Shown: positions 1 through 3,521 of the stretch, one piece after another
Position numbering within the stretch: position 1 is the stretch's first letter
How the letters are laid out: every line of letters begins with the position of its first letter
Virus record (IMG/VR): IMGVR_UViG_2663762627_000003
DNA length: 5,233 bases
Direction: 5' to 3' (one strand)
Source of the DNA: a virus
Lineage: Duplodnaviria; Heunggongvirae; Uroviricota; Caudoviricetes
Translations under genes and position numbers: made by a program
Notes under the pieces: generated by a model
Database searches by the model: none
The model's input: the letters and a program-made list of their open reading frames with translations, nothing else
Told to the model about the DNA's origin: nothing

Positions 1-75
1 TACACTCTGCAGCTGAGCAGTTCCTCTAACTACGACAACCTGAACGGTTGGGCGNNGNNNGNGNNNNGACNGTAA
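1..75 (+). CDS. Possible 3' end of an unidentified upstream CDS, interrupted by ambiguous bases
   Basis: Frame 1 is open from the window edge (YTLQLSSSSNYDNLNGWA...) through the N-containing block to a TAA at 73-75. This 54-nt stretch is 29/54 G+C, unlike the AT-rich cargo to its right. No motif recognised; the N block prevents a clean reading. Confidence 0.2.
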   Translation, partial: YTLQLSSSSNYDNLNGWAXXXXXX

Positions 76-288
76 ATTATGACGGGAAACAATTTACGTA
101 TCCGGTTGCTGATGAGTGGCCGGGATTTTTACAAACAGAAATTGTTTTTGGGATTAATAAGTTATCTCTAAGCTAAGACGCTCAAAGCAAGAGATTATTT
201 TACTGTACGTAGCCATCTGGAATTGTGGCTGTGTTAAAACGCTCGAGATTTTTTGGATATCCAGTTATACTCCGCTTAGAAATCATTC

Positions 289-293
289 GGAGA
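289..293 (+). promoter_or_regulatory. Shine-Dalgarno sequence (GGAGA) for the methyltransferase gene
   Basis: GGAGA sits 5-6 nt upstream of the ATG at 299. No convincing -35/-10 pair could be identified by eye further upstream. Confidence 0.5.
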
Positions 294-298
294 CTAAG

Positions 299-1345
299 AT
301 GGCGGTAAAAGTTGTTGATCTTTTTTGCGGTGCTGGCGGTTTAACGCACGGCTTACATTTGGCCGGATTGGACGTTGTCGCAGGCATTGATTTAGAAGGT
401 GAGTGTCGTGTTGCATACGAAAGCAATAATGATGCACTTTTTATTGAAAAAGATATATCTCTGGTGACAAAAGATGAAATCGAAAATCTTTTTGAAGGGG
501 CAAGTGTTAAAGTATTGGCCGGATGTGCACCTTGTCAGCCATTTTCTAAATATACTCAGGGAAAAGATAAAAAAAATGATAAAAAGTGGCCGTTATTATA
601 TGAGTTTGAACGTTTAATAAAAGACACGAAACCAGAAATAGTTACAATGGAAAACGTTCCTGATGTGACAAAACATTCTGTCTATGATGATTTTTATAAT
701 ACCTTAATAGCATTGGGTTATTATGTTTGGGCAAATAAGATTGAATGTGTAGATTTTGAGGTTCCGCAAAACAGAGTGAGGCATGTATTACTCGCATCTA
801 AATTTGCGCCGATTTCTCTGATGAAACCACAAACATCGGTAAAGCTGACAGTTAGGGATTGCATTGGTAATTTACCTTCGATTGAAGCGGGACAAGCAGA
901 TCCAAAAGACCCTCTCCATAAGGCGAGTAGATTGAGTGAAATTAATCTCAAACGTATTCTACATTCAAAACCGGGGGGGACATGGAGGGATTGGCCTGCT
1001 GAATTAATCGCTTCATGTCATGCCAAGAAAAGTGGGCAGGGATATGCCAGTGTTTATGGTCGTATGTCTTGGGATAAACCGAGTCCAACGATAACTACAC
1101 TTTGTTATGGTTTTGGTAATGGACGTTTTGGTCATCCCGAGCAGCATCGTGCAATCTCACTTAGGGAAGCAGCATTACTTCAAACGTTTCCTGTTACATA
1201 TTCATTTACCCAACCGGGCGAGCCGATCAAAATGAAAAATGTCGGGCGTATGATAGGTAATGCTGTTCCTGTAAACTTAGGTAAAGCGATTGGTCTTTCA
1301 ATAGTACATCATTTGAAAGAGTTTCACCCCGCCGCTCTTAAATAA
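299..1345 (+). CDS. DNA (cytosine-5)-methyltransferase, Dcm/C5-MTase family, 348 aa
   Basis: Canonical C5-MTase motifs in the correct order: motif I DLFCGAGG (AdoMet binding, nt 323-340), motif IV GCAPCQPFS with catalytic Cys79 (codon 533-535), motif VI ENV (650-658), motif VIII QNRVR, motif X GNAVP near the C-terminus. The variable region between VIII and IX is consistent with a target-recognition domain. Confidence 0.9.
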   Translation: MAVKVVDLFCGAGGLTHGLHLAGLDVVAGIDLEGECRVAYESNNDALFIEKDISLVTKDEIENLFEGASVKVLAGCAPCQPFSKYTQGKDKKNDKKWPLLYEFERLIKDTKPEIVTMENVPDVTKHSVYDDFYNTLIALGYYVWANKIECVDFEVPQNRVRHVLLASKFAPISLMKPQTSVKLTVRDCIGNLPSIEAGQADPKDPLHKASRLSEINLKRILHSKPGGTWRDWPAELIASCHAKKSGQGYASVYGRMSWDKPSPTITTLCYGFGNGRFGHPEQHRAISLREAALLQTFPVTYSFTQPGEPIKMKNVGRMIGNAVPVNLGKAIGLSIVHHLKEFHPAALK

Positions 1346-2043
1346 GCCTGAGTATCAAGATAAGTTTGTATATTTTCAAGGATGCAGTTGAGATAATGAA
1401 AAACTTCATCCTTCATTTCTGTTAGTGTATCAATAGATGTATCTCTGCCTTTGTTTCTAAATGATTCAGAACCATGAGCAAGGTCGTTTCTGGCCTTTTT
1501 TATTGGAAGTAAATTGCAACCATTTCGCGTTATTTCTGAATCTGTATCTGCTGAGAAGCCATATTTTTCAGCGACTTCTCTAATTTTTCTAGCATCAACA
1601 TTTCCAGAAAATAACGGATTTTTATTTGATTGGATAAGTTTTTTGTGAGCGTTTAGCCACTCTTTAAATATAACTTTTGCAATGTTCCCTTGTGAGAAAT
1701 CTATTTTCCCATTTGGTGATTGTAAACTATGAAATGCTACTCTTGTAAGGTTTTCATTTACAGTGTCTGCACATAATGATTCATTAGACATTAAAACATT
1801 ATGAATGTCTTCTATTGCATTGGAAATGGTTGCTTCAATGAGATTGTACAATATAATAAATGCATTAGCCTTTAAAATATGAGTCATATCAATATCAATG
1901 GGTTGTTGTATAGGCGCATCGCTTGTATTCTCTTTATAGACTAGAGATGGTTTTTTGTTTATTAGTAACTGAATGAATGAGAAGTATTCATTAATATCTT
2001 GCATTCTTTCTTGGAAAAGAATTTTACTTGTCATCTCCTCCAT
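1324..2043 (-). CDS. HEPN-like protein (resembles MAE_28990/MAE_18760-type HEPN nuclease family), 239 aa
   Basis: C-terminal KKARNDLAHG contains an R-x4-H HEPN-type motif (R185 at codon 1489-1491, H190 at 1474-1476). The protein is predominantly helical in character and lies 10 nt downstream of, and co-oriented with, the DUF262 gene. A GAGG about 9 nt upstream of the ATG is a plausible RBS. The family call is from memory of motif pattern and is not verified by search. Confidence 0.6.
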   Translation of the reverse strand: MEEMTSKILFQERMQDINEYFSFIQLLINKKPSLVYKENTSDAPIQQPIDIDMTHILKANAFIILYNLIEATISNAIEDIHNVLMSNESLCADTVNENLTRVAFHSLQSPNGKIDFSQGNIAKVIFKEWLNAHKKLIQSNKNPLFSGNVDARKIREVAEKYGFSADTDSEITRNGCNLLPIKKARNDLAHGSESFRNKGRDTSIDTLTEMKDEVFHYLNCILENIQTYLDTQAYLRAAG

Positions 2044-2053
2044 TTACTTGGCC

Positions 2054-3199
2054 TCACTCCATATTTTCATCTTCATTTTCATCTTCGTCGACAATATTTT
2101 CTGGAATGTCTTTCCCAAGCAACTTGTTTTTTACATATTCAATGCGTGCTTTAACTTTGGGTTTAGAGTTGCTGGCATCTGAACGTGTGTGCGTGATAAA
2201 CTCTTTCGAGTTGATCCAGTCATCAATATTTTTAGGAACTAAATTGGGTTCTTCCTCTAGTGCTAATGTTGCACCGACGGCAAGAGCTTCGAAACGAATC
2301 CTAGGAACAGTGGTGGCGTTTTTCACCTTTCTGAAACCATTTGGGAAATGTGTATTAATGAATTGGCACATTTTATGAAATTTTTCCGCCAGCATAGCTG
2401 CGTTTTCATCTGTATATTCGGCATTTTTACGTTTTAAATAGGTTGTAAGAAATTCATCAACGCTTTTTCTGAAATCAAGATATTCTTCAGTGTAGGCAAA
2501 GTAGCGTAGTGCCAATTCTGGATATTCAGAGCGACGTTTTCTTGCATCTCCCAAAGGACAGATGCTATGAAATAGAGGATCTTCGGAAATTTCATTGATA
2601 AATGCAAGGAATGGCCCATCATGGCTACCTTGCCGTTGTTCCATTGTTGTTAGTTTTTTTCCGCCAGTATTCAGACGGTCAAAAATTTCCCTTCTTGTCT
2701 CTTCGTCACAATGTTCTGTAAGTTCAATCATTCGAATAGTTTTTCTATCAAAACGTAGGCGACGGGGAGTACTGAAATCAGAATATTTAAAACCATTGGC
2801 TGTGACTAATTTCTGCAGGCCTTCAAGAGTTAGTTTGTTATTGGTAAATTGGTGTAGGGTTCTTATTCGTTGGCTACCGTCAACAATTTCAAGTCTACCT
2901 TCATTTTCACCTGAACCAATATCGGCAACGAATATGTAAGGTATAGGAAGATTTAAAAGCAGAGATTCAATGAAACGGGATTTTTGCTTGTTGTTCCAGA
3001 TAAACTCCCTTTGGTAGTCAGGTATAAAAAGCTCTGCCTCATCTTCTTCAAGACCATTCTGAAATTTGTCCACAATAACACTTATCGGGAACTCACGTAT
3101 TTCATGGTCAGTGATTTTTTGCATTTCAACTATGCTTTGATCTAAAAGCTCCTTTTCTTCTTTAGTTTTTGGGGTATGTTCTGCTTTTTTTCTCGCCAT
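2054..3199 (-). CDS. DUF262 / ParB-like (GmrS-type DGQQR motif) domain protein, 381 aa
   Basis: N-terminal region has LFIPDYQREFIW (the YQR..W signature of DUF262) and EIVDGSQR (a DGQQR-type motif; codons 2867-2881). No His-Me/HNH (DUF1524-like) motif is recognisable in the C-terminal half. The protein ends in an acidic tail, DEDENEDENME. Confidence 0.85.
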   Translation of the reverse strand: MARKKAEHTPKTKEEKELLDQSIVEMQKITDHEIREFPISVIVDKFQNGLEEDEAELFIPDYQREFIWNNKQKSRFIESLLLNLPIPYIFVADIGSGENEGRLEIVDGSQRIRTLHQFTNNKLTLEGLQKLVTANGFKYSDFSTPRRLRFDRKTIRMIELTEHCDEETRREIFDRLNTGGKKLTTMEQRQGSHDGPFLAFINEISEDPLFHSICPLGDARKRRSEYPELALRYFAYTEEYLDFRKSVDEFLTTYLKRKNAEYTDENAAMLAEKFHKMCQFINTHFPNGFRKVKNATTVPRIRFEALAVGATLALEEEPNLVPKNIDDWINSKEFITHTRSDASNSKPKVKARIEYVKNKLLGKDIPENIVDEDENEDENME

Positions 3200-3220
3200 G
3201 AGCTTATTATCCTACTATGC

Positions 3221-3315
3221 GTGTGATTGCATTAAATTGCATGTTAAACAAAAGCATAATCTATATCAGTCAATCAGCCAGTGGCAAGGTGTTGTGATTA
3301 CAATGCAACTGCATT
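3221..3315. promoter_or_regulatory. Putative promoter/operator region of the DUF262-HEPN operon, with TTGCAT direct repeats and an AATGCA-N2-TGCATT inverted repeat
   Basis: TTGCAT occurs at 3227-3232 and 3237-3242, 10 bp apart. A perfect 6-bp-arm inverted repeat AATGCAacTGCATT lies at 3302-3315. Both segments are preceded by TGTGATT. They sit between cos and the start codon at 3199. Confidence 0.3.
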
Positions 3316-3338
3316 AGAACCGACTCATGAAGCGGGCG

Positions 3339-3357
3339 GGCGAGGCGGGGAAAGCAC
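3339..3357. other. cos: cos site: 19-nt cohesive-end sequence of P2/186/P4 type
   Basis: GGCGAGGCGGGGAAAGCAC matches the P2-family cohesive end as I recall it. Its position just downstream of the portal gene end is what is expected for P2 gene order (cos-Q-P). Confidence 0.65.
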
Positions 3358-3499: not shown

Positions 3500-3521
3500 A
3501 AAAAAGCCGCCCGCAGGCGGC
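3500..3521 (-). terminator. Rho-independent terminator downstream of the portal gene
   Basis: On the minus strand, 5 nt after the Q stop codon, a 6-bp G/C stem (3516-3521 pairing with 3506-3511) with a 4-nt loop (3512-3515) is followed by a run of six U (3500-3505). Confidence 0.7.

Follow-up and report, generated by a model that had tools for sequence, protein, structure and literature searches.

Which genes make up the candidate anti-phage cassette at positions 299–3199 of a 5,233-nt stretch of viral DNA (Duplodnaviria; Heunggongvirae; Uroviricota; Caudoviricetes; IMG/VR record IMGVR_UViG_2663762627_000003; hereafter the window), and how might their products act together? A first-pass annotation, made from the sequence alone, described a two-gene operon encoding a DUF262 (ParB-like) protein and a HEPN protein; it left out the adjacent, convergent gene for a C5 cytosine DNA methyltransferase (MTase). 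We find that the conserved unit is three genes, MTase included (Table 1). On balance, we lean towards reading it as an anti-phage cassette resembling a restriction–modification (R-M) system, in which the MTase marks self, a DUF262 nucleoside triphosphatase (NTPase) reads the status of DNA, and a HEPN ribonuclease (RNase) is the effector.

To delimit the unit, we scanned one genome per species with a profile of the DUF262 protein, which yielded 80 loci at 44–95% identity, and searched the open reading frames (ORFs) at these loci with the HEPN profile, the DUF262 profile and the window MTase. Sufficient flanking sequence for assessment was available at 73 of the 80 loci. The cassette is compact and very widespread: the loci span at least nine phyla and include Gamma-, Beta- and Alphaproteobacteria, Cyanobacteria, Bacteroidota, Planctomycetota, Verrucomicrobiota, Lentisphaerae, Desulfobacterota, Campylobacterota and one bacterium of the Candidate Phyla Radiation (CPR). 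DUF262 followed by HEPN, together with a C5 MTase, is found at 70 of the 73 assessable loci. The MTase gene is convergent and lies just after HEPN, as in the window, at 54 loci; it lies upstream on the same strand at 11 and downstream on the same strand at 5. Two loci carry DUF262 and MTase without HEPN, and one carries DUF262 and HEPN without MTase.

At 34 loci, the DUF262 gene runs 4 nt into the HEPN gene, and the median gap between the two in the relatives is −4 nt (an ATGA overlap); in the window, the HEPN gene lies directly downstream of DUF262 after a gap of 10 nt. The median gap between HEPN and MTase in the related loci is likewise −4 nt, and in the window the 3′ ends of these two convergent genes overlap by 22 nt (1324–1345). 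The adjoining MTase is an orthologue of the window enzyme (48–89% identity) except at five loci, which have another C5 MTase (~29%). Pairwise identities across the 73 loci correlate between DUF262 and HEPN (r = 0.89), DUF262 and MTase (r = 0.72), and HEPN and MTase (r = 0.70); the three cassette proteins co-diverge. The presence of the MTase at nearly all assessable loci, its persistence across phyla and this co-divergence argue that it belongs to the unit, and the description as a two-gene operon has to be widened accordingly.

The same triad occurs on V. cholerae chromosomes, in nine Moraxella catarrhalis prophages and, in Pseudomonas (L010), within the cargo of a Tn7-like element, where tnsBCDE-like transposition genes adjoin the set. 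In the Pseudomonas locus (7978–9927), a gene for a GHKL/HATPase_c_3 (MORC-like) ATPase is inserted between HEPN and MTase. Two assessable loci, both cyanobacterial (L090 and L077), lack an intact MTase. In the DUF262 proteins of both, otherwise strongly conserved positions are altered by substitutions absent from the remaining 80 proteins: R302K, N344R and P347K in L090, and F173Y and S340L in L077. As far as sequence comparison can tell, these unusual substitutions fit a model in which the MTase protects against the wild-type DUF262 protein. At L090, a partial duplicate of the HEPN gene occupies the usual place of the MTase.

The three proteins

The DUF262 protein matches the Pfam family GmrSD_N/DUF262 (E = 4.7e-28, 99 bits; cut-off 33) and is labelled 'DUF262 domain-containing protein' in RefSeq. 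The three motifs described for DUF262 in the literature, QRxxxW, DGxQR and FxxxN, are all intact in the window protein, which contains the peptides FIPDYQREFIW and IVDGSQR. Residues Q63, R64, W68, D107, G108, Q110, R111 and N177 are invariant in 82 of 82 homologues, and F173 is kept in 81 of the 82, the remaining one having F173Y. In GmrSD, BrxU and SspE, DUF262 is a DNA-modification sensor that depends on nucleoside triphosphate (NTP). The PADLOC profile NsnA (PDLC03877) matches residues 31–358 over positions 41–377 of 385 (E = 4.9e-55, 185 bits), and PD-T4-2_A (PDLC04027) matches residues 59–356 over positions 55–357 of 363 (E = 9.2e-35, 118 bits).

To compare folds, we used AlphaFold models of the DUF262 and HEPN proteins, built from alignments of 43 and 49 sequences with pLDDT values of 82.6 and 91.9, respectively. 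The best structural matches of the DUF262 protein include BrxU and SspE. Its C-terminal half, all-helical in the model, is the counterpart of the 'ParBDB' DNA-binding domain in NsnA, SspE and GmrSD; we detected no nuclease fold in this half, and Pfam finds no DUF1524/His-Me domain in the protein. ORF 2054–3199 is thus a ParB/Srx-fold DUF262 protein with an NTP-binding site and a helical domain of DNA-binding type, and without a nuclease domain. Its C-terminus (2054–2100) is a strongly acidic tail modelled with low confidence (VDEDENEDENME). This tail varies in length and sequence among homologues, and some betaproteobacterial members have an extension of 30–40 residues.

The HEPN protein matches Pfam HEPN_MAE_28990 (PF18737; E = 7.6e-18, 65.9 bits; cut-off 26.8) and, just over the cut-off, HEPN_RiboL-PSP (29.6 bits; cut-off 28.4). 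Its peptide KARNDLAHG contains R185 and H190, and R185, N186, L188, H190 and G191 (RNxLAHG) are kept in 81 of 81 homologues. The structure model confirms the HEPN fold and resembles HepT toxins. RefSeq places the start of the gene 9 nt later, at 2034, which gives 236 amino acids (aa), and labels the product 'MAE_28990/MAE_18760 family HEPN-like nuclease'. No PADLOC family, PD-T4-2_B included, matches the HEPN protein at E ≤ 0.1, so current PADLOC models would miss the cassette. A terminator-like hairpin at 1480–1497 (plus strand) lies ~135 nt beyond the MTase stop codon, antisense within the HEPN coding region. Given this location, MTase transcripts would reach into the 3′ end of the HEPN message, and such overlapping transcripts could permit antisense control of HEPN.

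For this pair of proteins, the first-pass annotation stands in most respects. Both ORFs lie on the minus strand at the positions that it gave, separated by 10 nt, and the peptides that it quoted and its numbering of D107, R111, R185 and H190 are correct. Its DUF262 and HEPN assignments are borne out by Pfam scores well over the cut-offs and far beyond chance, and the structure models agree with DUF262/ParB and HEPN folds. It had seen no DUF1524/His-Me nuclease motif in the DUF262 protein, as Pfam and the helical C-terminal half confirm, and it was right to describe a nuclease-less sensor split from a HEPN protein acting in trans. The PADLOC comparison that it proposed gave a divided result, with matches for the DUF262 protein (NsnA and PD-T4-2_A) and with no model for the HEPN protein.

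The MTase matches Pfam DNA_methylase (E = 1.8e-54) and TIGR00675 dcm (125.8 bits; cut-off 100.65). All the catalytic motifs of C5 MTases (FCGAGG, PCQ with cysteine C77, ENV, QNRVR and GNAVP) are seen in its translation and, judged by these motifs, it appears to be a complete C5 cytosine MTase. We also considered a Dnmt2-like tRNA methylase that guards RNA from HEPN; this idea was set aside because type II and DISARM models for DNA MTases align with the whole length of the protein (E ~1e-84 to 1e-89). A G7 homopolymer at 972–978 (CCG GGG GGG) encodes P-G-G of the conserved segment KPGGTWRDWP, a peptide that other family members encode without a G run.

Relation to described systems

Within the literature searched, we found no experimental study of the triad, and the main text of Rousset 2022 does not mention it. 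The only paper found there that mentions the MAE_28990 family is that of Anantharaman et al. 2013 (Biol Direct 8:15), whose Table 1 lists an operon class of MAE_28990 HEPN, ParB and DNA methylase, defined by comparative genomics alone and left without a system name. The window cassette has each of its elements: the same MAE_28990 HEPN with Rx4-6H, an adjacent gene of the ParB superfamily (DUF262) and an adjacent DNA methylase. The specific association of this HEPN family with a ParB protein and a methylase was thus published in 2013. The same authors proposed, by analogy with PrrC, that R-M-linked HEPN proteins are RNases in a multi-pronged defence. They call the ParB partner a nuclease, which is unsupported for DUF262 domains without DUF1524.

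The combination of DUF262 and HEPN also has a name already, contrary to the first-pass statement that experimentally named systems of exactly this architecture were not known: PD-T4-2 of E. coli ECOR65, annotated 'DUF262, HEPN', guards K-12 against T4, and its deletion sensitises the native strain (Vassallo et al. 2022). By HHpred, its HEPN protein matches RiboL-PSP at 97.8% and MAE_28990 at 96.9% (Vassallo et al. 2022). PD-T4-2 and the window both have a DUF262 protein without DUF1524 followed by an adjacent HEPN protein, and both are cargo of E. coli mobile elements. The window DUF262 protein matches the PD-T4-2_A profile over its full length, but NsnA outscores it (185 versus 118 bits); the window HEPN protein does not match PD-T4-2_B, the families shared being Pfam HEPN only. 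The PD-T4-2 ORFs span 1540 bp and the window pair 1876 bp. PD-T4-2 functions as cloned, with no methylase, whereas the MTase of the window cassette is near-obligate. At the level of profiles, we therefore rejected the window pair as a PD-T4-2 orthologue, since PD-T4-2_B gives no match and NsnA fits better.

Two phages carry DUF262 pairs without an MTase. In the Klebsiella P2-like phage ST16-OXA48phi5.4 (L094, 2926–4829), DUF262 and HEPN_RiboL-PSP genes lie between tail-fibre and tail genes; in the E. coli phage 689R6 (L097, 2923–4634), DUF262 and a small partner that has no PADLOC match lie next to the integrase at icd. Neither partner matches PD-T4-2_B, and PADLOC scores led us to reject both pairs as PD-T4-2. 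No DNA relative of L094 was found in E. coli complete genomes, and a profile comparison of the window HEPN family with the L094 HEPN partner revealed no similarity (probability 1.6%).

In reviews, PD-T4-2, Menshen and Dazbog appear among the DUF262 systems without DUF1524 whose mechanism is unexplained. Menshen NsnA follows the same plan as the window DUF262 protein, a ParB-DUF262 domain with the three motifs and then a helical ParBDB, and is proposed to sense DNA; Menshen effectors, likewise, are mostly RNases. However, the window lacks genes for the ABC-ATPase NsnB and the inPIN-effector NsnC, the downstream genes being HEPN and MTase only, and we rejected membership in Menshen on these grounds. 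GmrSD, BrxU and SspE share the DUF262 fold and the NTP-site motifs with the window protein, but in these enzymes a single chain also includes a DUF1524 His-Me DNA nuclease, which is absent from the window proteins; GmrSD and BrxU, moreover, target modified DNA and work without a cognate MTase. A GmrSD-type enzyme was rejected, as Pfam finds no DUF1524 and the window holds no such gene. A HEPN-MNT toxin–antitoxin pair was rejected as well: the window has no MNT gene, and the partner of HEPN is the DUF262 protein. We found no recognised DNA-nuclease domain in the cassette that could serve as a type II R-M partner.

PD-lambda-5 ('ParB/HEPN, methyltransferase') is read by its authors as a compact system combining R-M and abortive infection (Vassallo et al. 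2022). It consists of a ParBc–(weak HEPN) fusion and a D12-class N6-adenine MTase, and PADLOC finds no match to it among the window proteins. PrrC is a HEPN anticodon nuclease restrained by an R-M system (EcoprrI); it differs from the window cassette in having an ABC ATPase and in acting alongside a type I R-M system. Both PD-lambda-5 and PrrC–EcoprrI are analogues of the cassette, not homologues. The architecture of the cassette is thus not new: it belongs to the class described computationally in 2013 and is a methylase-linked variant of the validated DUF262 and HEPN kind.

Proposed mechanism and rival explanations

In the R-M-like model that we favour, the MTase would methylate its target sites in the DNA of the resident chromosome and prophage. 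The DUF262 protein would bind DNA and read whether the mark is there, through NTP binding or hydrolysis of the kind seen in GmrSD, BrxU, SspE and ParB. On meeting unmarked DNA, such as that of an incoming phage or plasmid, it would release or activate its co-translated HEPN partner. A HEPN dimer would then cleave RNA (tRNA, rRNA or mRNA), so that translation stops and the infection aborts. The 'restriction' arm would accordingly be a sensor joined to an RNase, not a DNA endonuclease. A more specific version, which we put forward only tentatively, is an R-M system with a nuclease-less 'R' arm, in which an NTP-switched ParB-like protein reads 5-methylcytosine (m5C) and directly licenses the HEPN RNase to cause abortive infection. 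In this nuclease-less version, the ParB/Noc-like architecture would allow clamp-like loading or spreading on unmarked DNA.

Several observations weigh against this model. Pairs of DUF262 and HEPN exist without an MTase: PD-T4-2 works in this form and L094 persists in it, so the DUF262–HEPN core need not be methylation-gated. The sequence is, moreover, compatible with sensing of either unmethylated or methylated DNA. In the P24B2 record (L002), a G8 run in place of the window G7 frameshifts the MTase, and in N. weixii (L026, 8843–9885) a 1-nt deletion in a short C run splits it; DUF262 and HEPN are intact in the former and full length in the latter. Both indels could be sequencing errors, and the difference in the P24B2 G run could alternatively reflect slipped-strand switching of the methylase. 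Finally, in two cyanobacterial loci (L058 and L086) DUF262 adjoins the MTase with ~100 nt between the genes, and HEPN is cleanly absent. This suggests that a DUF262 and MTase pair is able to persist alone, and HEPN may be accessory rather than the sole effector.

The loci without HEPN fit an explanation of the PrrC type, in which the cassette is a classical R-M system with a back-up suicide arm (Anantharaman et al. 2013). Here, the DUF262/ParB-like protein would itself be an endonuclease or nickase acting on unmethylated DNA, and would keep the HEPN RNase silent until a phage neutralises the restriction arm. Besides L058 and L086, the 2013 paper speaks for it, with its term 'ParB nuclease' and the same logic proposed for R-M-linked HEPN proteins, as does a weak match of the DUF262 region to the PADLOC 'Type II REase' model (REase_II, E = 8.9e-07). 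We nonetheless think it unlikely: GmrSD, BrxU and SspE cleave via the DUF1524 His-Me domain that is missing here, their DUF262 is the NTPase and sensor, and the C-terminal half of the window protein offers no detected nuclease fold instead. If the MTase were an independent gene, for instance a phage anti-restriction or orphan methylase, DUF262 and HEPN could form a self-contained system of the PD-T4-2 type that senses modified phage DNA, as a type IV enzyme would, or some other cue. PD-T4-2 does act as two genes, against a phage, T4, whose DNA is hypermodified, and the MTase-less pairs and the apparently frameshifted MTases with intact partner genes point the same way. However, at 70 of 73 assessable loci from at least nine phyla the MTase adjoins the pair, in widely differing genomic settings; overlapping gene ends are frequent, and the divergence of the MTase parallels that of both partners. 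In addition, the PD-T4-2_B model misses the window HEPN, and a profile comparison of its family with the HEPN of an MTase-less pair detected no similarity. We regard an independent two-gene system as distinctly improbable. Because the MTase is near-obligate, the type IV (modification-dependent) action that had been suggested for the pair is also less likely than a modification-protected, R-M-like one.

An obligate MTase would also be accounted for if the DUF262 protein recognised the cassette's own m5C mark, which would stimulate its NTPase and license the effector against unmarked DNA. Such positive sensing has a precedent in SspE, whose DUF262 domain senses the host phosphorothioate mark, leading to NTPase activity and nuclease activation. 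The argument is one from analogy, however, and it explains the unusual DUF262 substitutions at MTase-less loci no better than the protective model does; we give it little credence. R-M-like gene sets also act as selfish addiction modules. The cassette rides on P2-like and Moraxella prophages and on a Tn7-like element, and might chiefly stabilise them by post-segregational killing, with phage defence incidental. This is the explanation that we find hardest to credit: the cassette lies in a hotspot whose tested cargo confers phage defence, and many cyanobacterial and proteobacterial loci have no obvious mobile-element genes in the inspected flanks. Addiction would, in any case, be compatible with a defence role.

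If the favoured R-M-like model is right, a DNA methylation mark would gate, by way of a ParB-like NTPase, an RNase-based abortive response and not a DNA endonuclease, which would be a second immune use of methylation. It would also offer a way into the mechanism of the nuclease-less DUF262 systems PD-T4-2, Menshen and Dazbog. If the mechanism fails, the cassette is one further member of an already catalogued class. The alleles in E. coli P2 prophages make the cassette directly testable in a standard host.

Genomic setting

The window is a portion of a P2-like prophage. The right end of Peduovirus P24B2 shares 99.9% identity with positions 68–3338, P2-family phages share ~97% with the portal and terminase portion, and three complete genomes of E. 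coli contain the whole window at ~99%. In most other P2-like prophages, the match is confined to the flanks and excludes the island. The three cargo genes and their island have a GC content of 30–44%, versus 52–59% in the phage backbone. The stretch that separates the replication endonuclease gene from the portal gene is a documented P2 defence hotspot that holds old, tin and many validated systems, as the literature records with reference to Rousset 2022. The DUF262–HEPN–MTase cassette sits in this gene A-to-cos/Q hotspot, and its position there as low-GC cargo upholds the defence context proposed for the pair. Among 5426 complete E. coli genomes, at least 16 carry the cassette in this same hotspot, as at least three diverged alleles.

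Table 1. Positions of the cassette genes and neighbouring features in the window
Feature	Position	Strand	Remark
Gene A (replication endonuclease), 3′ end	up to 176		
Low-GC cargo island	177–3338		between gene A end and cos
C5 cytosine DNA methyltransferase (MTase)	299–1345	+	348 aa; modification arm
HEPN protein	1324–2043	−	239 aa; proposed RNase effector
DUF262 protein	2054–3199	−	381 aa; proposed sensor or switch
Promoter-like site	3258–3287	−	5′ of DUF262–HEPN operon; TTGCCA-18-TAGATT, 9/12 matches; weak candidate
P2 cos 19-mer, exact	3339–3357		GGCGAGGCGGGGAAAGCAC; end of cargo island
GC-rich terminator hairpin	3506–3521	−	after portal gene
Portal gene Q	4561–3527	−	
Terminase P	from 5232	−	

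An Rfam scan of the window found no RNA family and a repeat scan nothing meaningful. Scattered ambiguous bases (N) occur at 55–71, in the 3′ end of gene A. The promoter-like site lies ~60 nt upstream of the ATG at 3199; promoter-like sites in the region are not commoner than in shuffled sequence. No regulator gene is evident within the cassette. Near the promoter-like site, upstream of the DUF262 start (~3215–3310, minus strand), the words TGCAATCACA and TGTAATCACA recur and might be an operator.

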